Numbered from the stretch's first letter, positions 4,753 to 40,719 are shown. The stretch is DNA of 64,000 nucleotides from Curvularia clavata (GCA_023920165.1 CP089280.1:620001-684000); one strand, 5' to 3'. Notes: generated by a model not told the origin, from the sequence alone. A program made the numbers and translations.

Positions 4753-5073
4753 GTTATGTTCTCGAATGCATCGATGGGAAACTGCATTTGGCGTTCATAG
4801 ACTAGACACAAAATTGCTATCCGCAAACTTAACACCTGACCAGATTCACATTTGCTTCTCGGCATAAAACTTGAATAGTTTTCTTTGTCCTATTATTTAG
4901 GATATTTTGCTACAGGAATATGCATTACGACTCATTGTCGTCTTAAACTAAAAATATGAACATGAAGAATAGTAGCCCATCATACTAGGCGCTCGGCTCC
5001 CCAGAAAAAAAACGCCAAATCGCTCATCCATAACCATCGTATCAACATCACTTTCATCAACAACAACACTCGT

Positions 5074-6630
5074 TTAGTTAAGTCCAACAGCAATGGCAGC
5101 AAGAGCCCAGTCCATGAAACCAGCATTGGTGTCCAGGATGTTCTGGTTGAACTCAGTGAGGGTGGGGTAAAAGTTTGTGGCATAGCCGAATTCCATGGTG
5201 ACTAAAGCATGCAGAATTAGTATCGAAGTAATATTTGCAAGCTGGAAAGAGTTGAAAACTTACAGCCATGGACCTTGTTGGCACCAGACTTGGCGTACAC
5301 ACGGCTGGCTGCGTAGTCGTCTGAGGCACCGGATGTAGCGTAGAGACCAACCGACTGCATGGACGAGTACGAACGTCCACCTACTGCGGCCACTGTGAAA
5401 AAAGGGGTTAGTCTTCGTTGTGTATGAACGAATGATAGATAACTTACTAGCAGCAGCCGTCTTGGAAGCAACGGACTTGATGTTGGAGGCATCGGCCGAG
5501 GGAATGTACTCCTTGTAAGTGGAGTCACCAATACGGCCTCGCTTTCCGTCGTAGGCGCTGTTAAGGAAGTTCATGGCGGTGTTTGTGCTCTGGAGCTCGT
5601 CATCACCCCAGTTGTACAGGATGTCTCCGGTGGCCGAGTGGATGTCCATGAACCAGCGGATCTTAGGGAAGCTGTCGTAGATGCTCACGTGGTTCTTAGT
5701 CTCGGACTCAGAGGCAGCAGCAGTGCCGTAGAAAGCTTCCGAGCTGGGCGAGCGGGAGGCAGGGGAGGTTGAGGGGTCAAAGAACTTGGGGAAGTTCCAG
5801 AGGAAGTCAAAGTTACGGTTGATATCAACACCAACAGAAGCACCGCTTGAGCCAGATTTGGTGTTGCGGTTCTTGCGCCAGAGCGAGCCGGAGGACTGGT
5901 CATAGGCGACTCCGTCAGGGTTGACAAGAGGGAAGAAGACAATACCAGCGGCGAGGACACTCTTGACTTGGGCGTTGGTGTATGTCTTTCGGCCGTATGT
6001 GAGACCGGTTCCGGCCTTGTTTGCAGCAAGCAAGTCGGAAATCCAGTAGATGAGCTGATCTGGGCCACCACGCTCACGTGCGTGCATACCAGCACTGAGA
6101 TAAAGCTTGTACTGGGACTTGTCTGTGCCGGCGCCAACGTATCCAGCGGTTTGTGTCGCACCCTGGAAAGTCTTGTATGGCAGAGTGATGGTGCTGATAC
6201 CGTAACCATTGACGAGACCCTTGATAGCCGAGTTGATCTCGTTGACGTTCATGATGGAGCTGATAGTTGATCCTGAGGCTTTGGTACCGAGACCAGATGG
6301 GGTAACAGCGCCACCCTGCCATCGGTCGCCAGAGCCAATAGGCGCATCGGCAGCCCTCTTGCTAAGGTCTCGTCGATGAAGAGTGATCTCATTCGAGTTC
6401 TCGTATTCCTTGGTCAGGTGGGCAATTTGCTCCTCCGTCAGTAGAGCGTGGAGCTCAAAGTGGCCATCCTGGTGTGGAACGGCCTTTGGTCGGCAGCCCA
6501 AATCGTATGTGCCGTTGTTCACGATATCCAAAAAGTGGTTGGGCGTGGGTGCTTTGAAATGAACTGGAAGAAGACTTCCAAGTACAGTTGTACTCTGGAG
6601 TATCAACGCTGAAGCGAGAGCGTACTTCAT
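5074..6630 (-). CDS. Secreted zinc carboxypeptidase, family M14 (carboxypeptidase A/B-like)
   Basis: Signal peptide MKYALASALIL, KR-ending propeptide, motifs HARE, NPDG, RKNR, DINRN, DIHS. Two 3' introns (~5449-5395, ~5263-5202) restore GFTMEFG (catalytic Glu) and the stop at 5074. Confidence 0.92.
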
Positions 6631-19123: not shown

Positions 19124-22100
19124 TCATATTCCAGCTTCCGGACACCATTTCTTGACCCATTGATCAAGCACTTTTGGCCCCAATGGTTTCGTCAGAAACT
19201 CATCTGCACCGGCCTCTTCTGCATTCTTGCGATCATTGGGTGAATCTTGTCCGGTTATGATGAACAACACGCTTTTCTCCCATCCATTTTCATCCTCCAT
19301 TTGTCGGATCTGCCGAGTCGCGTCGATGCCATCGCATTCGGGCATTTGTAAATCCATTAGGACCAGTTCAAACGCTTGTGCAGGTACATCCTTTTGCAGC
19401 AGAGCATCATATTTATTTACTACTGCCTCCGAGAAGATCTTGACAGCTTGTCGCCCATCTTTTGCTGTCCGATATGGAAAGCCGCGTCGTTCGCAGTACA
19501 TCTCTAATATACGGAGATTAACAGTGTTGTCATCGACCAGCAGTGTCCATGGTTTTTTCGGATCTGCGCCTGGTTTGCTAGCAAGTAATGAAGGATCAGA
19601 TCCTATCGCTAGATTTTGTAGTGATTCTGCAAGCTGTCTTTGCGTCTGTTTGGGAATTTTAGGGCTTCGTTTTCCAGATTTTACAGCGCGGGGAGTCGTG
19701 TTTTGAACTGCCGATAGGAGCTTAGGCGCAATAACAACCTCGGGAAATGAACTGTCTCGGAGATCTACGATGGATTGTTGAGCCTCTACCAAAATTGTTG
19801 CAACAAGCTCCATTGCTTGCAATAGTTGCTCGGTCAAAAATGGCCCTTGGATATACACAGCATTGTTTTGTCGTCTGACCCGTTCATTTTCAAAGTCGGG
19901 GAAAGTCGCGTGTTCAGGTACTAGGCAAATGATAACCTGCTCGGTGCCGACACTAGCCAACTGTTGGTAAAATTGAGCAAGGTCGGAATTGTAATCTATG
20001 ACTACAAGGCTCTCGCTCTTTTCTTTTGACTCCAGCCAACCGGCATTTGAAAGCCAATGACTGAAGTAATTCCCGAGGGAAGGCATTGCGGATGCTGACG
20101 CGAGGCGGTAGAACTTCTGTGGGAATGAGGTTTGTCCTTCTTGGGTAGGGCAAAGTGGTGAAATCGAACTCGCGCAGATGGGGTTGTTGAAAACAGCCCT
20201 AGCATGTGAACCTGCATCATGCTTTGGAGACAACATCGAAACTTCTCCATCCAGAAGGGCTGCAGCTTTACAGGCTATGGTCAGACCTAACGCACATTCG
20301 GCAGTGGTCAGATCATCCTTTCCATAGACATCGGTCAGTGTTTCGTAGTGAGACTTGGCTGAGTCGATCCCACTGTGATAGATGTCCACCGCCAGGAACT
20401 GGTAATCATCGTCGACTGTCAACGTTACTGCTACAACACCACCGGCAGACTGTTGTGTGGCATGCACTACGAGCGGTTGGATACAGTCCAGGAAAACTCG
20501 CAGATCTGTCACCAGCATATCGCATCTTTTCGGGAAACGATGCGAAATTATGATAGATGGCCTAATCGACAGATCATCGGGCAATCTCACCAGGACCTCG
20601 TGGAGAAGAGCGGTTTCAATGCCCGCGATTCTGTGAAGCGTCATGACTCGCTCTGCCTGCGCAATCTCGGCCCACTGATTCAGTTTGATGAGACTGTTCA
20701 CGGTCGAGATGAGTTCTCTGGCTGAGGTCTTGATCGTTTGCACGTAAGTGTAGAGATCCAATTGTTCTGTTTCTGGGCCTCCACTGCGCGTACATGCAGC
20801 AGACGGAGGGATAGCATTATGTGCCTTGATAGCTTCAGTCAAAAGCTCTGCAGAGCCGAGAATACCGTGTATCGGCGTTCGCAGTTGATGTGTGATACCT
20901 CGGAGGAAGGACTCCTTGGTCGCAAGTGCTTCTTGAAGTGCACGACTTTGCCAGTATCGGCATAAGATCATCTGCGTTTTGAATTGGTGGTTAGCAGTTG
21001 CTATATATATGATTTGTCTTCGATTGCTACGTACAGCACATGTTTGCACGAACCAGGAATCCACATCGTCAAAGACTCTTTTCAAGTCATTGCAGGCTAC
21101 GACAAGGAATGTCGGCACGCATTGACTGGCGCATTTTACTGCAACCGCGCGTACTGGCCGAGACGCTGTCATGTCAAGATGGTTTAGCTGTTTTATGGCA
21201 TAGTCGAAATATTCGGTATCTTCCCACAGCCCTTGCTCAAGGTCGCCAGTAGAAAAGGCCGTATCGCTCTCGAACGAAATGCTGCCATCTTTCGTTCGTT
21301 TGATAGTCACTTCCATACTTGGATATATCTCTTGGAGCATCTTTGGAATTTCTTCCTCCATGTTGGCGTGCTCATCACAGAGCCGTTGAGCGTCGCAGAT
21401 TAGCTCCAACATGCGCCTGCGTTCCTTTTGACGTCTAGCTCTCGCACTGTGAACAATGTCGGAGACAATAGCATCTGCAAGGCGTACTAGGGCCTGCTGC
21501 ACAGTTGGAGCGAGTCGCTCTTGAGGGGAGTTTGAAGCAACACACAGGGAACCAAAAGCCACATGCTGTCCAAATTCGGTCTCGAATTTCAGTGGTACGC
21601 CAGCGTACGATCGTAATCCTCCTATTTCAACATGAGGCGACTTTTCGAAACGCCAGTCAGCGGCCATGTTATGCAAGGCGAATAAGCTCTACGATCATTA
21701 GCCACCAAACATGTAGGGATCAACGGTTACCCACGTCTGGTTTTTGGTTGATGGTGTGGGCACAAGTACTTTCGCGGCGCGGTAAGATGGCGAGTGGGAG
21801 ATTTGCAGTAACCAGACGGGTATAGGTATTGTGGCTTAATAGGCCAGCAATAGCAAATTCCCACCCAACTATTTCACTAGCAAGAAGGACCTTTTCTTGC
21901 AAACGGGACATGAGCTCTTGATCCTCCAATACCCCACGGGTATAGTAATAGAGCATAGTTAGTCTCAGTCTCTCATTCCGCGACAGGACCGGGAAGAGGT
22001 AGCGGCCAGAATGGGATGAACGAGGACATTGCGCCTTGATGGGAACAGGCGCAGCGGCGTAAACATCGCTTCTGCTCGGATACACAGACTCGAGTTCTTC

Positions 22101-28388: not shown

Positions 28389-28725
28389 GGTGGGATCAGC
28401 AGCGGGGCGTGGATAGGCGGTGGCTGAGGGTATCGTGTAGTGTATGTATGTACAACGGGATGGAAGAGGTAAGCGGGATGAGGCTGTTGTTGGAGGGGTC
28501 GAGGGGCACAACAGGGTGGGGCAAGCACGGAGGCAAGGCGAGGAAGGTGCATCTCAGGGTCCACAGCACGGAACGCTGATTGACCACTCCTCAGCGGTGC
28601 ATCGCGCCCAACGGCCCAAACTGCAGCCCGCGTCTGCTAGCGTCCAACTGCGTGGCTGGCCGCACATGGGTCCAAGAGGCTGTTCTCCACAAAAACCTCT
28701 CGCTCTCTCCTACACGCCCGCCCCA

Positions 28726-31700
28726 ATGTCGGATTCCTACGACCAGGCCCTTGGCCGATCCCAGGCCCGCAGGCGTAGGCGAATTGACCATGGCGAGCTG
28801 GCCAAGGAGCGCGAAAAGGCCTTTTACCGGTTTGTCACGCTCCCACCGCCCCGGACCGCCGCCTACACGACCGGGCGAGACTCAGTCAAGTGAATGAATT
28901 GGTGCTGATACAGTCCATGGCCAGCTACTATCCCCGCCCCGGCTTCCAGCGCCCTCCTACCGACGGGCCTGCCAGCAGCCGCCACTCGTCGCCGTCGCCG
29001 TCGCCCGCCTCGCATTCGCAGACACCCCCGAGCACCCCTCCCCCCTCGCTCGACTATGTTCCAAAGGCCTCCGACGATAAGGCCTTGACGGCCTTTGCCC
29101 AGCTCGGAGCCTTGCGCCTGAACGCCCGCCGCTGCCTTATCTCCTTCTTCGACCGCAAGGACTGCTTCCTCCTCGCTGAAGCCACCAAGACGCTGTCATT
29201 GGACACTGGCGAGGCCGAGTTTGACGACGACCGCCTATGCTTTGGCACCACCATATTCCCCAAGGAGCAGAGCCTGTGCAACTACACCGTCAATCTCGCC
29301 CCAAAATACACGACGCTGCCTCTGGACGACCCGAGCGACCTCCCCTCACTCGTTGTCAATGACCTGAGCCAAGATCCGCGGTTTTGCGACTTTCCCTTCG
29401 TCAAGGGCCCGCCCTACTCGCGTTTCTATGCCGGCGTCCCGATCCGCAGTCCTACGGGCCACAGCATCGGCACCTACTGCGTCCTCGACGAGAAGCCGCG
29501 CGATGGAGTGACGCCTCACCAGCTTGCTTTTCTGAAGAGCATGGCAGGTACCGTCATGCGTCATCTCGAGAGGACGAGGGCAGCCGAAGACCACCGCAGG
29601 GCCAAGATCATGGTCAAGAGTTTGGGCTCCTTTGCTGAGGGCAAGAGCGGACTGGAGAATTGGGCTCAGGATCCCTGGGACAACGATCAATCTGAATCTT
29701 GGTCGGACCAGCCAGATGCTATCGCTTCCCAGCGGCAGCGCCCTTCTGCAACTACGCCTACGGAACAAGAGCCACCTGCGCTTAATGGGCACAGTCACAT
29801 GGATTTCCAACCCGTTGGTCCGTTGAACGAGAAAGCACCGCCTGCCCAGCCACTGCCACACACGCCGAGCTCACCTACAACTAAGCTTACCGCTACCTTG
29901 GAGCCTAGCCAAATGGTTGAGCCCGTCCGTCCAGACATGACCACCACAACGTCATCCGCTTCAACAAAGGGCCTAGCAAACCTTGAACAGAAGGACAGGG
30001 CAGCCCCAGAGCTCAGAGCTCACTTCACTCGTGCAGCCAACATGATTGTGGATTCGACAGAGGCAGAGGGTGTTGCTTTTTTCGATGCCAAGATCAGTAC
30101 CTTTGGCGGTCTGGTTGACGATGACTTCGATCCGGATCAACTTCCCGAACCGGACAAGCCGTGCGACATTCTCGGCGCTGCCCTGTGTAAGACCGATCGC
30201 GATACCAAACCTTTTTCAAACACGGGCGAATGTATCTCGGAGAGTGTGTTGCGACACCTTCTTCGACTCTATCCACACGGTCAGATTTTCCACCTCGATC
30301 ATGATTCCGCTACCCCTTCAATCAACTCCCCTTCGACTGGTTTGGACGAGTTTGAGTCTTCTGATGGGTTCCCATTCGGCACCCCTCGCAAAGCCGAGTC
30401 CTCTAGAAGTTTAGATGATGAGGCGTACCTGAGAAGAGTCTTTCCTACTGCACGAAGCCTAATCTTGTACCCCCTGTGGGACCCGCACCGCGAACGATGG
30501 TTTGCGACTGCCGTCATATGGAGCTCCGAGCCCAAGAGAATCTTTACAACAGAGCAAGAGCTCAGCTACTTAGCGGCGTTCAGCAACTTTGTCATGGCCG
30601 AGGTTGCTCGTCTCGACACAAAGTTAGCCGATGCTGCAAAGGCCGATTTCATCTCGTCCATCAGTCACGAACTTCGTTCTCCTTTGGTATGCGTCTAGCC
30701 GTGGAAAAGAAACCTCTGTAGTAGCCAAGCTAATTACTATCTCCAGCACGGTATACTTGGAATGACAGATCTTCTGAAGGACTCTTCTCTCGACGGCCAG
30801 CAGGTGTCCCACGTCGCAACAATCGAGACCTGTGGTAAAACATTGTTGGAGACCATCAATCATGTATGCTTGACCCTCCCAAAAGTATATCTCAATGCTA
30901 ACCGCCATCCGAGGTCCTCGATTTTGCAAAGATCAACAACCTGACGCGCGGTGTCTCAAAACGACAGAAGAAACGCACTCAGAGCGCCAAGCACATCATC
31001 AGTCCTGGCCGGGCTCATACCAACGACATCATGACACTCATTAATGATGTCGATATGAGCATACTGACAGAAGACGTCGTCGAGAGCGTATTTGCTGGCT
31101 ACACATATGCAAAGACATCTGCTCAGACATACGAACTCAGCACATCCAAGGCAAACAATCGGCCCATCTCCATCATTCTCGACATCAACCATAGCGACAA
31201 TTACGTCTTCCGCACTCAACCCGGTGCTTGGCGACGTGTGATTATGAACCTGTTTGGAAACAGCCTCAAGTACACCCCTGGTGGCTACATCAAAGTAAAG
31301 CTTGAAGTGAAGCGAAAGCCTGAGCATGAAGACGAGACTTGTGAATTTAGGTTCTCGGTTACAGACTCTGGCATTGGCATGTCGGAGGATTACATCAACA
31401 ATAGGCTCTTCCATTCTTTTGCCCAGGAAAACCCATTGAGCCAGGGTACTGGCTTGGGTCTTTCAATTGTCAAGCAAATTGTCGAGTCTCTTGGAGGAGA
31501 GGTGGAAGTGCGAAGTGAGAAGGATCGGGGTACCAAATTCTCAGTCACATGTCCGCTGAAGGAGTCACGAATGTCCCCAAGCTTCGGTGCCACTGTCCCA
31601 GAGACTGAGAAAGATACAAACTTGCTGGAAGTTTCCAAGCGCACCAAGGGCTTAAAAGTGCGCTTTGATGGTTTCAATGAAGCAGAGGAGTATTTCGTCA

Positions 31701-32842
31701 AAGACCTTAAGAACAAGAACGCTTCAAAACTGTGTCTCAAGGCATTGGTCAGTCTCTGTGCTGATTGGTTTGGCATGGAGCGCTTCGAGGAAGGCGGCGA
31801 CACTTTGCAACCAGACATGATTATTGCTACTGAGAACTGCGCAAAAGAGCTGCGCACCCAATACAGCCAGTCCCCCAGCAAGATTGCTGCAACCCCAGTC
31901 ATTGTCGTGTGTCAGGGTGCAGCAGCCGCACAATCAACTACAGCCATCACTGTCCCGGGCATCATCTTCGAATGTATCAGCCAACCAGTAGGCCCACACA
32001 AGATGGCAAAAGCGCTCTCATCCTGTCTCAGTCGACACGCCAAACAAATCGCCACGCAAAAAACCACCAGCGACCCGGTCCTTTCCCGAGTTACCGAACT
32101 TCACCTCAGAGATGACGCTCCTCCTAAATATTCTGATCGGCTGCACATTCCAGGGCCCCTTCGGCCACCGCTTACCAGCGCCAGTAGTGCTCCTGAGATA
32201 CGTTCGGCTAATTGTAGTCCTATAAAGCCGTCCAAGTATGCAAAGCCAAGTCGGGCCCTACGATGTCTTTGCGTCGATGACAACCCCATCAATCTTCGTC
32301 TCCTCCGAACCTTTGTCGACAAACTCGGCCACGAGCACAGTCTTGCCACACACGGTCAGGAGGCTCTGGAAGCCTACAAAACTGCCTGCAACGAAGAAGA
32401 GTCTCGCTTTGACGTTGTGCTCATGGATATCAACATGCCTGTCATGGACGGGCTTGAAGCAACCCGTCAAATCCGTGCCCATGAAATTCGATCCAATCTC
32501 CCCAAGGTTACCATCATCGCGCTCACTGGCGTCGCCGATGCTGATATACAACAAGAAGCAAATTCCAGTGGCATCAATCTCTTCCTCATTAAGCCAGTGC
32601 GCCTGGCTGACCTCGAAGTCATTCTCAAGGGCGTTGTTACCGGACAGGACAAGGCGAATCTGGAACTAGAGGCCGAGAAGGAGAGACTCAAGCTTGCCGA
32701 GGCCAACGCAATTCTCAACATGGATAGTACAAACGAGAAGACGAGGAGTGTCAATGTGGGCATGGCAGTCGGCAAAGGCCAAGAAGAAACGCAGAAGTTG
32801 ACCAAGGCACACGAGCATAGCAAGAGCGTATCCATCGGTTGA
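28726..32842 (+). CDS. GAF-containing hybrid histidine kinase (GAF-HisKA-HATPase-receiver)
   Basis: N-terminal REKAFYR|YYP, GAF (FYAGVPI..IGTYCVLDEKPR), SHELRSPL|HGILG, N-box NLFGNSLKYT, DSGIGM, GTGLGLSI, receiver DDNPIN..LMDINMP..KP; introns ~28830-28924, ~30687-30746, ~30864-30913. Confidence 0.93.
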
Positions 32843-34146
32843 TAAGAGGGACGCGGTACGAAACGAGTATAGCACTTCAACGCATGGGAATCTCTAGGTA
32901 CTCGATACTGGCCCTTGCTGCATAGAACGCAGTGTGGCCTCATTTACCCTTTGCGGATTCAGCACTTGGCGCATTCACTGCACAACATGCCCACCCACCT
33001 CAATGCATTTTCGCATTCAGTCCTGCACTCGGAAGAGGAAAGCACTCAACGACGCCTACGACCCAAGCAGAAGAACTTCATAATGAGCGAGCAAGGAAAG
33101 GGCCTAAAAGGAAAGCATTGCTCCACCAGTTGCCTAGTCATGAGAGCGGGAGACAAGACCAGCATAACCCTATTTCTCCGGTTGTCTCCCCTCATTTCTT
33201 GCTTTTGCTTTCCCAAGTTCTCCTCTTTCCCTTCTGCATGTTCTTTCATGTTTTTTTTTCTCTCTACATCATAGACACCCCCGGTATCACTACCACTCTT
33301 ATTTTCTAAAAGAGCACGGCATTTTGGTCGTCACGCATATGTGCATGCATGCGTATATGCAGCCCATGGAAAACCATGGAAAGCACAAAAGCTAAAACCA
33401 GTAAAAAAAATTTAGAAGTCTAAGATAGCACTCTCCCTCTTTCTCAAAGGGGTGAGGGGGCTGCGAAAGAAAAGGACTCATGACAGTACAATGATGAGGT
33501 ATGAATGGCATGATTCAACTTATATTTCTGATCTTTTGCACGTATGCATGGTTTCCTTGCTCTTCCTCCTTCTTGCTCCCTTGTGGTTTTCCCCTCACTT
33601 CTTCTCTCCTAGAAGAAAACCACGCCACAGCGACACAAGACGAGTGAATGAAGCCCGTGGGCAGGGAAGAGGAGTACTTGTGCACGCATGTCGTTTTTTT
33701 CTTTCTCATTCTTCCTCTGGTGTTTATACCCTTTCATCTATCTGCTTGTCCATTCTTCATCGCGCAAGGCATTCCGCATGCATGGCGTTTCTGCAAGCAA
33801 TTTTGTTTCTTGGCTGATCAGATTTCTCTCTCGCGCACGCTTAGTGTTGATGAGTATTCGCTACGTGAGTCTGGTTAAGAGTTCTCTGAGAGCAGGGTGA
33901 GGAGGAAATAGGGATGGAGAGGTGCAACTTGGTTTGAGTGGTATGGAGATCTGAGGTTGCAAATATGCGGTTCTTTGAATGTATATAGTTACGAAATCGA
34001 ACAATGTATGCATGATAAAAGGAATAATGCAAATTGATCGTGCGAAGTGACATTGGCTGATTACGGGTATTGTGTCGTTGTGTGTAAGAGAAGGGTGCTT
34101 ATGAATGCGTTCATCCAACGTCGATAAGTAAACACGATTTAGAATA

Positions 34147-34292
34147 ACCTCCTCCCCCACGCAGCGATAGGAACAACAGATACTTTGACTTTGTGCCAGT
34201 TTCATACTTTCTCTAGAGCGTGGTCGAGGTGAAGAATCTTACTGCATCATTAATAGCTAATTCTCTACGTATCTCCTAGTCTGTGTCCAAAA
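34147..34292 (+). repeat. Left inverted repeat
   Basis: Core 34166-34193 GATAGGAACAACAGATACTTTGACTTTG matches the reverse complement of 39181-39208 at 27/28; ungapped similarity continues inward (CTTTCTCTA, AAGAATC and ATTCTCTA blocks). Confidence 0.85.
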
Positions 34293-34589
34293 CTTTACAT
34301 CAAATGCATTGCTGTATTGCTACATTTGCGCTGAACGTCTATCAACTATGTGGCACAACATCAGCAACAACCAAGCAATCTTAGCTTCTTACTTGCTAAA
34401 AATTATTGTTACATTATCTTCGCTTGTGTACTCCCACGTACCCCTTAGACATAGCTCGGCGCAAACACCTCTAGCGCTTCGCATACCTCTTGCACTAAGT
34501 AGCTTAGTATTAGAGGAGATAATAGTTGTTGATAAAGTATAGTTAAAGTCTGTAGATTTAAGATAGTAAGAAGAAATACAGTTATGATA

Positions 34590-37500
34590 TCACGTGCTAT
34601 AGCTATCAAATCTACTCTGCATACAAGCTAATACATGCTCAGACGCCTGTCGAAATGGATGAGTAGCTGCCATTGTTGTCCGTTGTACCTTGACCACATG
34701 CTCTAGCAGCTCTACCGCCTCTTCTATCTGCCCATTAGCATAATACGCACGAGCAAGCTCGTGCTGCGATGCCAGCCGAGAAGGGTGAGTCTCTGCCAGC
34801 GTAGTCTCCCACATCTTGACAACGTGCTCTAGCAGCTCTACCGCCTCTTCTGTCTGCCTATTAGCACTATACGCACGAGCAAGGGCGTGCTGTGATGCCA
34901 GCTGGTCTGGATGAGTTTCTACCAGCGTAGTCTTCTCAATCTTAACAACGTGCTCTAGCAGCTCTATTGCCTTCTTAGTCTGCCTAGTAGCACTATACGC
35001 ACTAGCAAGGGCGTGCTGTGATGCCAGCCGGTCTGGGTGCGTCTCTGCCAGCGTAGTCTTATGCACCTTGACGACGTGCTCTAGCAGCTCTATCGCCTCC
35101 TTGGTCTGCCCATTAGCACTATACGCATTAGCAAGGGCGTGCTCCGATGCCAGCCGGTTTGGGTGAGTCTCTGCCAGCGTAGTCTCCTCAACCTTAACGA
35201 CGTGCTCTAGCAGTTCTATCGCCTCATTCGTCTGCCCATTAGCATTATACGCACTAGCAAGCTCGTACTGCGATATCAGCCGGTTTTGGTGAGTCTCTGC
35301 CAGCGTAGTCTCCTCAACCTTAACGACGTGCTCTAGCAGTTCTATCGCCTCATTCGTCTGCCCATTAGCATTATACGCACTAGCAAGCTCGTACTGCGAT
35401 ATCAGCCGGTTTTGGTGAGTCTCTGCCAGCGTAGTCTCCTCAACCTTAACGACGTGCTCTAGCAGTTCTATCGCCTCATTCGTCTGCCCATTAGCATTAT
35501 ACGCACTAGCAAGCTCGTACTGCGATATCAGCCGGTTTTGGTGAGTCTCTGCCAGCGTAGTCTCCTCAACCTTAACGACGTGCTCTAGCAGTTCTATCGC
35601 CTCATTCGTCTGCCCATTAGTGTTATACGCACTAGCAAGGGCGTGCTCCGATGCCAGCCGGTTTGGGTGAGTCTCTGCCAGCGTAGTCTCCCACACCTTG
35701 ACGACGTGCTCTAGCAGTTCTACCGCCTGTCTAACATGGCCCACGTATTCTAGATTTCTTGCTGTAAGATCCCATATCCGCATGTATTCTCGTGTCGGAT
35801 CTAACGGAGTAATTCCAAGAACCTTGAAGATGCCCTTTAGTAATGACTCTAGCTTCTTGTCTTCCCTCATCCTGTTCAACGCCTGTCCACACTCTAGCAA
35901 GATAGGCAGTATCTTCCTCGGCGGGCCAAATAAAAAGATCTCTTCAACACTGGGCAACAGAAACGACTGTAGATGCGGCCGCAGCTGCCTCTCGTATATC
36001 TGCCACGTCATTGACTCACTAAATGATAGTGCAAAAATGCATCCTGCGGTCACCCACGCTGCTTGCTGCTGCTTCTGATCTAGCCTGTCTTTTGCCCACG
36101 CGTGCGCTAGTGGATGCATCGACAGTCCGTCTAGGTCGTCTAAGCGGTATCTTGTCACCAGAGAGAGCGATATAAGCAGAGCGCAGGCTCTGTTGAGCCG
36201 GTAGTCGTCCCACTCGTCTGCTTGTTGGTCAATGAACTCTGGCAGCTGAGACACGTGCCATAGTCCAAGAGTGCCCATCTCGTCAGCCTGGCCGTCTTGG
36301 GTCTCAACCACATCTCGAGCAGCTTTCCACGCCTCTAGAAAGACGTCGAGTGGCAGCACACTTGAGTGTAGCATAGAAAGAACCCTAAGCAAGTCAAGCG
36401 CGTCTTGGCCTACCTCGTCCTCAGAATCGGCCAGGACCCCAACAGACGCTTCGAACGTTGCGTAAATATGTCGATACCGTGATTGTTGCTGCGTAGGATA
36501 GTGCTTAAGTAGTCGCTTACGCAGCCGTTTGTACTTCTCCGCGTACTGGTCTAGCCGACAGTATCCTTCTGCAATATACGCCCCCGCCTGAATCAGCGCA
36601 AGCGTGTGTGACCCTAGTAGCTGCACGATAGCCTTTGCCTGCTCTCTGCGAGCCTGCCAAACCTCTTGTGGCACTCGAGCGGCCTTGAGCAAAAGCTGTA
36701 TCGAATCCTCTTCTTCTAGACCTTCGAGCGCTTCTGGAGGCAGCGTGCTATACTGGCTGCACTCAGGCACACGCGATGTCATGATCACTGTGCCTTGCGC
36801 CCCAGACGGAACGTATGTTGAATAGTTGAACGTTGGGTTGTCAGCGTTGTCTAGGATCAGCAGCCAGCAGTCAGGCGTATTGGCGAGCGCGTGGAGTGAT
36901 TCCTCAACGCTCTCTTCAGACGACCCGAGCGCCTTTGCGATAGCCAAGAAGCCGCTTTTGGCTGTTGATGGACTGTCGACGTCTACCCAGAACACACCCC
37001 AGAAGCTATTCGCTGTTAGCAAACACGATTATATCCAGCACAGCGAAGCTGCAACGCACTCTTCTCGCACTAGACTCGCCACCCTGAGGCATACCTCGCT
37101 CTTGCCTATGCCGCCTATGCCCGTGATGACTAGTCGCTTCTGCTTAGGTGTGCCTGGCTCGTTGTTGCGCAATGCGCTCTGGATCCGAGGAACAAGCTCT
37201 GATCGCCCAGTGAATAGATTATTAACTAGACGAGGTACTATCCAGTGTACGTTTTTGGCTACATATAGTTTAGCACTAGTACACGTAATAGTCAATAGAC
37301 AATACCTACGCGTATAACGTTGTGCAATACAGCGTTCAGCATACTTCTATGTAAGTTTAGCAGGTTTACTGCACCACAAGCGCAAAATAACACGTACGTT
37401 GATAACTCCTGCAAATGACCGCTCTGCTCTATCTATACAGCGTTAGCACTAGCTTGCTCTACATATTAGGCAAAGTCTTCAATGTACACACTCTGCTTCT

Positions 37501-38639
37501 GCTGTAGATTCACAACACAGTCCCGCACCCGAAACTTCTGCGCCTGGTGTTGTAGATACTCGCCCGTCACCGCTTCTATCCTACCCTGCTCCTTATACTC
37601 GGCGAGCCTGACCTCCTGCAGCCCCTGGTCAACGTTAAAGCGGAAGTATCGCTTCTCATCGTAGTGCTTCGCCCATCGCGCAATAAACTTTCTCTCTGTC
37701 TCCTCTGTCTCGGTCGCAATCCCAACTAGGCTCTTCGATAGGAACTTGGCTATATTGTCCTCTAGCGCCTTCTTACCTGGGTGGCCTGTGCCGATAGAGA
37801 TGAAGCACTTGACTAGCGGCTTCAGTTCGCCTGTATTAGGATTCCAGATATTGGCCGCCTCGCCTTCTACCTCGTCAACAGGGTTATTAGCGCCCAGCGC
37901 GCCGTCCACAAAGTGTCGCGCCCCAATCGAGACAGGGTCGAAGAAGCCCGTCGCCGCCGACGTCGCAAGGGCTGCCTGGCAGATAGTCATAGGTATCTCG
38001 CCTTCGTCAGCCAGCGTATAGCTTCTTAGGCGTGTGACCCCGGTAGTCTCTGTTGCCGTCGCACAGACGAACCTTATGCTGTGTTAGTGGGAAGCCATGC
38101 ACCTGCGCACCTAGGTAGTATACTTACGTGTGACACCCACGCTTCTTACCATCGTTGAAGGCATCTGCTGGGGAGGCATCCGTCTTAGAGATTACATGTT
38201 CGATAGCACTCTTCAGCTTCGCTGAGTCAAACCGCGCCTTCACTTTGCCGCTCCAGCCAACAGGAAGCCAGCTAGACTTCTCCTCAAACACCGTCTTCAT
38301 TAGTTCGCTATACGCTGCGATGCATGCATCTACGTTCATTTCTAGCCGGCCTAGCATGATAGCAATAAGTCTGTCACGTCAGTCGCGTCTGGCCGGCATA
38401 CAGTCTTCTACCTACCCGCCTGTACTCGTGCCGCCGATAAGATCAAACACCTCGCACGGCTTCACGTTAGGAAGACCGGCATTCTGACGTTCGTGGTTGA
38501 GTCGGGTCATCAGGCCTTTCAGGATGTACAGTGTCGACAGGCCGCGCACGCCGCCGCCGTCGAGGGACAGCAGACACAGGCCGGTGGTGTTGAGCGGGTT
38601 AGGCTCGCCGCCGTGCTGGGTCGTGACGCTCTGCGCCAT
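34590..38639 (-). CDS. Fungal NLR: patatin-like phospholipase, NB-ARC and TPR repeats (1244 aa predicted, 7 exons)
   Basis: Exons 38639-38416, 38370-38128, 38072-37492, 37432-37398, 37346-37310, 37258-37060 and 37005-34590 join in frame (3735 nt). Patatin DGGGVRG, GTSTG, DGA; Walker A GIGGIGKS; Walker B LLILDNAD; SMHPLAH; 42-aa TPRs. Confidence 0.9.
34593..35708 (-). repeat. 126-bp tandem array encoding 42-aa TPR units (8 full plus 1 partial)
   Basis: Unit consensus HVVKxxxTTLAETHxxRLxSxxxLAxAYxANGQTxEAIELLE; units 2-4 (35582-35205) are identical at the DNA level. Confidence 0.97.
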
Positions 38640-38752
38640 GGCGGTGTCTTACGGCGAGATGAGCTTGTTGGTAGTGGAGCGTGTCAAGTCAGATCAACGG
38701 CGGATGCATAGCGAGTGTCCATGGTGGGCGAGGGGCCTTTCTGTAGGTTAGT

Positions 38753-38788
38753 AACAAGGCTGGCAACAAGGCTGGCAACAAGGCTGGC
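38753..38788 (+). repeat. 12-bp tandem repeat (AACAAGGCTGGC)x3 upstream of the NLR start
   Basis: Read directly: aacaaggctggc aacaaggctggc aacaaggctggc. Confidence 0.9.
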
Positions 38789-39081
38789 GGCTGAGCTGCG
38801 GACTGGGCTGCAGGCCAAGAGGTATAGGATGTAGGCCATGCAGCAGGCAGCACAAATGGCACTCCGCCAGTAGTGCTGCGAAGCGCCGAGGCGTGCAGAC
38901 TAAATTTGTAACGACCGTGTGTTAGCTTCAGGCATTGCCGCATCTACCCTACTCTAAGGGGCTTTATTTCGCTAACTAAAGAAAGGTTCAGAACAAATTG
39001 TGGGAACGGCTGGGGGCGAGTGGGCGCGTCTGGGGCAGCCCTGCTGGCGGGGCACGCTCTGCGGCTTGTAATGCGATGTTC

Positions 39082-39245
39082 TTCCGGATGTAGATCGTAA
39101 GATAGCTAGAGAATCGCTTATAGCTAGAGCTCTATGATTCTTGACTATGAATATCTTATAGAGAAAGAGCAAAGCTAAAGCAAAGTCAAAGTACCTGTTG
39201 TTCCTATCACGACACAGGGGTCTTTCGCTACATAGGAGGCGAGGT
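39082..39245 (-). repeat. Right inverted repeat, with an extra ~18-bp degenerate tandem duplication at ~39207-39224
   Basis: Reverse complement reads ACCTCGCCTCCTATGTAGCGA-AAGACCCCTGTGTCGT-GATAGGAACAACAGGTACTTTGACTTTG..., aligning to the left repeat. Confidence 0.85.
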
Positions 39246-39484
39246 TACATTGTAAAAGTACTCTTTTTCATAATTGCTACTCTGCATCTACGAAAAATCA
39301 CATGCATCGAAGAAAGTGAGTTATCAAGGGGAAAAAATATATATGCTGCGGTGAGATATATGCTACCTATTCCAGTCCAAGACATAAAGAACACTTTCGC
39401 TGGTTGGATTTCAAAACTCAACAATATTCAATCTAATTTGCCAAAAAAAAAACCCCCCTCCTTTGGGAGAGAGACATGCTGCGT

Positions 39485-40719
39485 CTAAGCACCTCGGGTC
39501 ATCGCATCGTGCTTGGCCTGAGCCATCAAGTGGCCAACTCCAGGCCCTATGATAGCAAACATCTCAAAAACCACAACGTGGACAATGACGATGACAAGAC
39601 CGGTCAGGATGAAAAAGTTCTTGATAAAAAGCTTGATAAGACGACGACGGGCCTCCCAGTTGAAAGACCTCCAGGCGTCGAGGAAGCCAACGACACCGGT
39701 TCCGCCCATCATCTTGCTGACAACCTTTCCACCAAAAGTACGGTCAAAGGGGACGATGGCGTCTTGGTCCTCGGGAAGAATAGAGGCCTCGACGCGGGCT
39801 AGGGTGACCATAGCAGGCAGGCAGAGGAAGAGATAGCAGGAGATGGCGAAGACGATAACGGCAAGGACGCGAGCGATGTTACCGATCTTCTCGGCACAGC
39901 TGACGGGCTCCCACTGCTTAGACGCATCCGACTCCTTGGTGAAGCCGAGGAGCTTGACCACGCCAACGAGAAGGTACATGCTGATGTGTGGCATGGCCGA
40001 GGCGATGGCGGCGGGAACGGCAAGGGTCTTCCAGTGGCTCTTGTTAGGGATGCGCTTCCAAAAGGACTGCTCAGTCGGCATTCCAACAACCTTGTGTGTC
40101 CATGCGGCGTGGACGCGGGCAAGGAGCGCACCAGTGAGGGCAGCGCTCAAGATAGTCTGGCCGGGGATGAAATCGAAAACGCCGCTGAAGAAGGCAAAGG
40201 CAAGGGTGCTGAGGAAGTGGTACAAGATGTAGACGCGGTATCCCCGGAAGCGGGCGAAGCGGCCGCCGTTGTCGACAAGATGACGGATAGTGGCGCGGAT
40301 GGACGAGGTGATGGGCTTCTGGTTGACGAGCTCGATCGTGGGGCCGGTCTCGAGGAGAGTCTCCTTCTCGCCTTCCTTGACCGATGGCTCATGGGTAGAG
40401 GAGGTAACGGTGATGGCGGCCGTAGGAGACTCAACCATGCACAGGGATACGATGACGTGGTTGAGCATGTACGACATCTAGTAGCACGTTGTCAGTACAT
40501 GATCTCGTTGATGCAATGGTGCAAGGCTGAACAGGGAGTACTCACGAGACTGAACCCAAGCATACCGACCACGAAGGTCAGGTAGACGATTACAACGCCC
40601 CAAGTAGGGACCTCGACTCTGTCGCCTTCACCATGCTGGATAGACACAGCGCGCTTGACAAAGGTTGCTGCATGCGGGTGCGATACAGCGCGACGGGCGA
40701 GCTCAACGAGCATGGTCAT
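39485..40719 (-). CDS. Fungal multi-pass membrane protein of unknown function
   Basis: Exon 40719-40546, intron GTGAGT..TAG (40545-40478), exon 40477-39485; motifs PITSSIRATIRHL..GGRFARFRG and LARVEASILPEDQDAIVPFDRTFGG; several TM segments. Confidence 0.85.

Follow-up and report, generated by a model that had tools for sequence, protein, structure and literature searches.

A candidate relic of a transposon-borne, single-gene NLR cassette between two convergent genes of Curvularia clavata

We examined the segment 34147-39245 of a 64,000-nt stretch of Curvularia clavata DNA (GCA_023920165.1, CP089280.1:620001-684000; the whole stretch is called the window below, and positions are counted from its first letter), in which one gene for a NOD-like receptor (NLR) of the patatin-NB-ARC-TPR class lies between two inverted copies of a repeat, here called the arms. 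The arms share an outer terminus and belong to a repeat family with a further copy in another fungal contig; the gene between them is intact, and the unit that they bound holds no transposase. We read this unit, tentatively and with somewhat less than even confidence, as an old and now fixed relic of a transposon-borne, single-gene NLR cassette. The initial annotation of this DNA had gone further and proposed a non-autonomous transposon that mobilises a complete NLR. The anatomy that it described (arms, TA dinucleotides, gene, no transposase) was recovered, and the mobility was not, the arms being old and the TA ambiguous. Movement of the unit at any time is not demonstrated, and a relic of movement is plausible only.

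The inverted arms and the gene between them

When each arm was compared by BLASTN with the 64-kb window, the sole significant match of either was the core pair, in which 34166-34193 (+ strand) agrees with the reverse complement of 39181-39208 (- strand) at 27/28 (E 2e-7), exactly as counted in the initial annotation. The ungapped similarity of roughly 55% that had been estimated by hand inward of the core was likewise reproduced: identity was 55/100 at register 0 and 15-33/100 at 12 registers from -6 to +6, and the inward local alignment scored 18 compared with 8.5 +/- 1.3 in shuffles, of which 0/1000 scored as high. At 34145-34151 the left outer end has gaa-TA-ACCTC, and at 39241-39247 the right one has GAGGT-TA-cat, again as first described; both arms thus have an outward-facing ACCTC terminus adjoined by TA. 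The left TA (34145-34146) is a candidate target-site duplication or else repeat sequence, and the right TA (39246-39247) adjoins the right terminus.

The left arm (34147-34333, + strand, outer terminus 34147) is a repeat copy of ~200 bp, and the right arm (39066-39245, - strand, outer terminus 39245) is its inverted counterpart. An nhmmer profile built from the two arms and a third copy, at the locus L001 described below, placed them at 34141-34333 (E 1.2e-56) and 39246-39066 (E 2.4e-53), E-values that belong to copies built into the profile; of the two inverted ~145-bp copies claimed earlier, the inversion therefore stands and the length is revised to somewhat more. With the same profile no further diverged copy appeared at E < 1 in the window or in L001. 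That the two arms are the only copies of the repeat in 64 kb, with one complete gene between them, speaks for the cassette. Over the columns shared in the alignment the arms agree at 104/165 (63%), i.e. as degenerate terminal inverted repeats (TIRs). Between terminus and core the left arm is ~18 nt shorter than the right arm and L001, and the alignment of the two arms over this interval is marginal (score 10 compared with 7.1 +/- 1.3 in shuffles, 47/1000 of which equal it). The inner end of the right arm is truncated or replaced near 39085-39090. By eye, neither arm forms a complete MITE (a miniature transposable element with inverted repeats), the ..TTTGCG inner end not being the reverse complement of the YAACC.. 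outer end.

The third copy came from a search in which a 23-mer taken from the core was run against metagenome contigs and which led to the one locus L001 (JAESFQ010001970.1, 6644 nt), a fungal contig by its AA9, DUF7730 and zf-MYND genes. Nothing beyond its single repeat copy, at 5023-5227, is shared with the window. The copy aligns to both arms inward from the common terminus YAACC, and its alignment with the left arm continues to ...TTTGCG, which gives a unit of ~190-210 nt. The core is 28/28 between the right arm and L001, where the right 28-nt core lies within a ~50-nt block that is almost identical, and L001 5040-5109 matches window 39229-39160 at 88.6% over 70 nt; sequence outside the core is 55-70% identical. 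The core, together with the ~50-nt block of the right arm and L001, is therefore far better conserved than the remaining repeat. Judged by these alignments, each arm is a copy of a single dispersed repeat of ~200 bp. The expectation that other copies would be found was borne out by this locus alone, as regards the repeat, and not as regards a partner end or NLR cargo: for 5 kb outward and 1.4 kb inward the L001 repeat has no second copy beside it, no inverted pair of its own termini was found, and there is no NLR. The L001 copy lies 60 nt past the stop codon of a small zf-MYND gene, whose 3' end its inner end faces, the same arrangement as that of the left arm and the NLR.

Other searches with the core returned little. 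A 24-mer had 0 matches in prokaryote genomes. A 20-mer matched two viral contigs of IMG/VR (L002 6001-6020 and L003 6001-6020), and these matches, which extend over ~27 nt only, were taken as chance; the two contigs have 33-35% GC, look like one sequence copied in opposite orientation and are otherwise unlike the window. Six core strings of 14-17 nt had no match in printed literature, nor did core strings match the text and readable supplements of PMC6737239 and PMC12506042, four picture supplements of which lay outside the search.

The NLR gene (34590-38639, - strand) was modelled with 7 exons, encoding 1244 aa with a single terminal stop; exons 1-4 lie at 38639-38416, 38370-38128, 38072-37492 and 37432-37398, and exons 5-7 at 37346-37310, 37258-37060 and 37005-34590. 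The model draws on splice joints in contigs of a related run (X23), on a 35-nt micro-exon and on one intron (37059-37006, GTGCGT...CTAAC...AG) placed from the sequence alone. The micro-exon (37432-37398) is required for the reading frame, and the spliced X23 contig holds 35 letters between its joints there. Pfam assigned Patatin (E 1.3e-8 and 1.8e-7), AAA_16 over the GIGGIGKS P-loop and TPR_10/TPR_12 (E ~1e-49), and PF00931 is present in homologues. As modelled, then, the gene is an intact fungal NLR of the patatin-NB-ARC-TPR class. The best protein matches of its NB-ARC part were to Bipolaris maydis (81%), Alternaria (76-77%) and Curvularia clavata (74%), with no protein match at 90% identity or above; these matches put the window in Pleosporales or close to it. 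The TPR tandem array (34687-35728, - strand) comprises 8.3 copies of a 126-nt unit with 91% matches, and the units at 35266-35391 and 35392-35517 are 100% identical. An array of such near-identical units makes this a "high internal conservation" NLR, and the identical units are a sign of ongoing concerted evolution.

The 3' non-coding region of the NLR (34334-34589, - strand) has no Pfam match. Its 5' region and promoter (38640-39065, - strand) includes a stretch of 143 nt (38921-39063, - strand) that is skipped by relatives' contigs; a perfect 12-nt tandem repeat in 3 copies lies at 38753-38788. No transposase was found in the unit, where 15/15 non-NLR open reading frames (ORFs; at least 60 aa, in or touching the unit) had no Pfam match at E <= 0.01. 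The claim that a whole NLR gene lies between the two inverted copies thus holds, with one intact gene and no transposase within.

If the unit is a relic cassette, it would have arrived in a single block where two convergent housekeeping genes leave a gap, carried by a transposase-less class II element of the kind known as ToxhAT/ToxTA. The arms would be the terminal regions of this carrier, and the conserved 28-50-nt subterminal core would be the predicted binding site for a transposase acting in trans; a well-kept core in otherwise divergent ends fits a conserved binding site of this sort. The outer terminus YAACC, common to three copies, is as expected of an element end, and the TA on both sides may represent the target-site duplication. 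The element would since have become a fixed relic, with decayed arms, an 18-nt deletion on the left, a lost inner end on the right and junctions common to relatives.

Surroundings, composition and relatives' contigs

The window is gene-dense and of housekeeping character, with genes for NAD synthase, Mlp1/TPR nucleoporin, TFIIE-beta, reticulon and two hybrid histidine kinases, and 0 of 43 scanned ORFs (from 89 of at least 130 aa in 64 kb, overlapping antisense and shorter frames being left out) was a transposase, a recombinase or a Starship DUF3435 captain. To the left of the unit lies a phytochrome-like hybrid histidine kinase (28441-33814, + strand; GAF, HATPase_c, Response_reg), and to the right a 330-aa ORF (39488-40477, - strand) with no Pfam family that is covered by spliced, transcript-like X23 contigs. 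The two are convergent on the unit, as the initial annotation had said, and their transcript-like X23 contigs end at 34039 and begin at 39351. The two hybrid histidine kinases lie within 15 kb (19127-21688 and 28441-33814), the second having the GAF domain. A sub-threshold Rfam match to sR14, a C/D-box snoRNA, at 33714-33764 on the minus strand (18.2 bits, gathering threshold 38, E 0.18) is probably chance.

The unit had been called TpA-rich and unlike its neighbours, and the counts agree: TA occurs 334 times in its 5099 nt (6.55%) compared with 3.69% in the remaining window. For TpA the observed/expected ratio is 1.17, 1.07 and 0.90 in the three 2-kb bins of the unit, and the remaining 29 bins range over 0.37-0.83. 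Among 5-kb segments of the window none deviates more than the unit (delta 0.170; background mean 0.047, maximum 0.147). A first-order Markov model trained on the interior put one change point at 34204 and the other at 39291, each ~60 nt or less from an arm end. The TpA island is asymmetric about the TPR array, ending within ~450 nt of it on the left and reaching 3.4 kb on the right. An origin of the island from an L001-like lineage was considered and rejected, its dinucleotide distance to L001 being 0.112 and the mean of background chunks 0.102; no TpA-rich side was seen inward of the L001 copy. Of the two indices of repeat-induced point mutation (RIP), the first (TpA/ApT) is 1.28 in the unit, above the threshold of > 0.89, and the second, (CpA+TpG)/(ApC+GpT), is 1.12, above the threshold of < 1.03. 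No C>T direction bias was present in the arms or in the relative X6 compared with the window. RIP was discarded as the source of the arm divergence, C>T + G>A changes being about equal to T>C + A>G.

Relatives were compared through contigs of X3, X5, X6 and X23 (4 of 23 listed runs, all from close relatives), two others of the 23 looking like the source itself. At the right junction, contigs match the window from 39091 on, cross the right arm and continue in the flank as far as 39594 in X3, 40112 in X5 and 43500 in X6, and 157-371 letters unlike the window precede 39091 in these three. At the left junction, one X3 contig spans 33282 through the left terminus to the core end at 34193. An X6 contig coming from upstream of the NLR omits 38921-39063, matches 39064-39084 and is then unlike the window. 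Contigs of X3 and X5 omit the 143 nt as well, and this gap and the break at 39084-39091 set the relatives structurally apart from the strain of the window. By eye rather than by computation, the X6 letters just before 39091 resemble the inner repeat of the left arm and L001, and the right arm of the window is therefore probably truncated. Identity of X6 to the window is 97.6% in the left flank, 99% in the right arm plus flank and 92-95% in the NLR (35665-38920), and the X6 NLR pieces are not connected by any contig to the left or the right flank; their divergence could represent old alleles under balancing selection, or a paralogue. We draw no inference from the lack of contig cover at 90% likeness or above over ~34194-34509 in the 4 runs, nor from left-flank contigs that stop at 34066 (X5) and 34075 (X6). 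No RNA-like X23 contig was placed on either arm.

Several of these observations, and others from the repeat itself, weigh against the cassette. The locus was picked from a very large scan, so that a chance pair of repeats is not negligible if the family is abundant. The sole external copy (L001) is solitary and stands beside unrelated genes. The left and right arms, at 63%, are no closer to each other than the left arm is to L001 (111/164, 68%) or the right arm to L001 (125/177, 71%), which means that the arms are not each other's closest relatives. The TA may be the first two bases of the repeat itself, because L001 carries CA at the position aligned to the TA of both window arms. As for composition, the change-point plateaus are 150-300 nt wide and also lie near the flanking transcript ends, and the TpA-rich island is mostly NLR coding sequence, which makes up four of the 5.1 kb. 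In the relatives, the occupied right junction is bridged in 3/3 DNA-like runs and the left junction in 1/3. The empty site with one TA that the initial annotation had anticipated was not seen, 0/14 listed contig joints connecting the two flanks in the close relatives' runs. The right-flank contigs of X3, X5 and X6 all part from the window at 39091, precisely where the right arm has its inner edge, and in X6 the flank plus arm is ~1% divergent compared with 5-8% for the NLR pieces, so that the arm travels with the flank.

Other explanations for the arms

In the main alternative, the arms would be relic copies of an old dispersed repeat, independently inserted or rearranged, with a resident and fast-evolving NLR between them by chance, the odd composition and higher divergence being the NLR's own. 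We consider this a real possibility, short of probable. The odd interval would then have arisen from RIP-like mutation, by way of the near-identical TPR units, or from balancing selection. L001 offers an example of a solitary ~200-bp repeat unit without TIRs of its own, and the three known copies are roughly equidistant. In three relatives the right arm is a module apart from the NLR (break at 39084/39091), the junctions are fixed, and the X6 NLR pieces are more diverged (92-95%) than the flanks (97.6-99%). The NLR, with its 8.3 TPR units of 126 nt at 91%, two of them identical, is moreover of a kind that in Podospora, according to the available text of PMC13449251, is enriched in flanking transposable elements, RIP-like mutations and balancing selection; an NLR with near-identical repeats that is transposon-associated, RIP-prone and balanced could by itself explain both the island and the extra divergence. 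Set against this explanation is that the only two copies in 64 kb of otherwise transposon-free core genome face outward, have matching termini and are adjoined by TA. The arms, furthermore, lack the direction bias expected from RIP, the second RIP index of the unit is not below its threshold, and the TpA island is not centred on the TPR array.

It is unlikely, in our estimate, that the 28-50-nt core is a host cis-element (a protein-binding boundary or a terminator) or a small RNA that has been selected at several loci, the arms then serving the convergent flanking genes or insulating the NLR. The conservation of the core far above that of its surroundings, within and between genomes, would agree with such a function, as would the position of the arms, which begin ~106-108 nt past the flanking transcript-like contigs in the same relative orientation (34039 to 34147 and 39351 to 39245). 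Yet both arms and L001 gave no Rfam match at E up to 1, and a tRNA search found none, which also leaves no tRNA-derived head of a short interspersed nuclear element (SINE). The consensus folds of the two strands came out weak (-14.2 kcal/mol for one and -12.2 kcal/mol for the other, over ~200 nt, with covariation of -0.8 or weaker), the L001 copy faces a gene 5' end and not a 3' end, and the arms are without RNA-like X23 contigs.

That the arms arose by local inverted duplication, such as a fold-back repair at the integration of the NLR, and are not mobile-element ends is very improbable: the symmetric layout about one gene would suit it, yet it predicts the opposite ranking of identities from the one found, the arms being less alike than each is to the L001 copy of another genome, and the repeat exists elsewhere.

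Comparison with known elements

Fungi have patchy sets of NLR genes with rapid turnover, and which vehicles bring this about is a matter of debate. The simplest among them would be a 5-kb cassette in which transposon ends enclose a single NLR, and such a cassette would be easily testable. The plant elements known as Pack-MULE or Pack-TYPE have long inverted ends around host-derived cargo, usually gene fragments, lack a transposase and are flanked by duplications of 9-10 bp. The unit resembles them in its long inverted ends around host-derived sequence and in having no transposase. It differs in that its cargo is a complete, intact gene and in that no direct repeat of 9-10 bp is common to its flanks, gatttagaaTA and TAcattgtaaa, and the analogy to Pack-MULE drawn in the initial annotation fails on this point.

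Two further systems bear on the cargo. In domain order, near-identical TPR units, association with repeats and divergence above that of its flanks, the gene is like the PLP-1-type and "high internal conservation" NLRs as these are described in the available text; unlike PLP-1-type genes it has no recognised sec-9-like partner beside it, and an allorecognition role here is only putative. The giant Starship elements carry NLR and patatin cargo in Pezizomycotina (PMC13449251, PMC12506042, in the text available), and the unit shares with them NLR genes within a possible mobile carrier in this group; in contrast to Starships it has no DUF3435 captain or other Starship gene among the 43 ORFs scanned in 64 kb and measures 5 kb, not tens to hundreds of kb. 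The vehicles proposed for fungal NLRs in the available text of PMC13449251 are Starships, introgression and "direct mobilization" by flanking transposable elements. Our literature search for NLRs in small TIR elements turned up only work on Starships and on ToxhAT.

The closest comparison is with ToxhAT/ToxTA. In the parts of PMC6737239 and PMC12506042 that bear on it, this system is described from the Pleosporales Bipolaris sorokiniana, Pyrenophora tritici-repentis and Parastagonospora nodorum as a TIR-bounded, non-autonomous class II element with a TA duplication, mobilised by a transposase in trans. ToxhAT is given there a length of 14.3 kb; it contains 8 genes as well as nested transposons, and its 74-bp TIRs agree at ~92%. 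Its largest coding sequence is a patatin-TPR NLR, and sites found empty, with one TA, prove that it is mobile. An element of this kind, with TIRs, flanking TA, no transposase and a patatin NLR as cargo in Pleosporales, has thus been published, as far as these texts describe it; with a patatin-TPR NLR on record in ToxhAT/ToxTA, the idea has less novelty than it first seemed to have. The present unit is like ToxhAT/ToxTA in its Pleosporales host, inverted ends, TA on both sides, lack of a transposase of its own and patatin-TPR NLR cargo, the arms being likened to the ToxhAT TIRs by described architecture and not by sequence alignment. It is unlike ToxhAT, as described, in its size of 5.1 kb, its one gene, its ~190-bp arms at 63% and the lack of any sign of mobility. 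If real, it would belong to the published ToxhAT/ToxTA kind as a minimal form with a single gene. A broader reading, under which TIR cassettes that target TA and lack a transposase form a family that moves whole patatin-type NLR genes within and between Pleosporales genomes, with this unit as its minimal, one-gene member, seems to us rather improbable; were it true, the patchy distribution of NLRs among fungi would have a concrete, small-scale vehicle, and the patatin-TPR gene in ToxhAT would represent a further member of the family.

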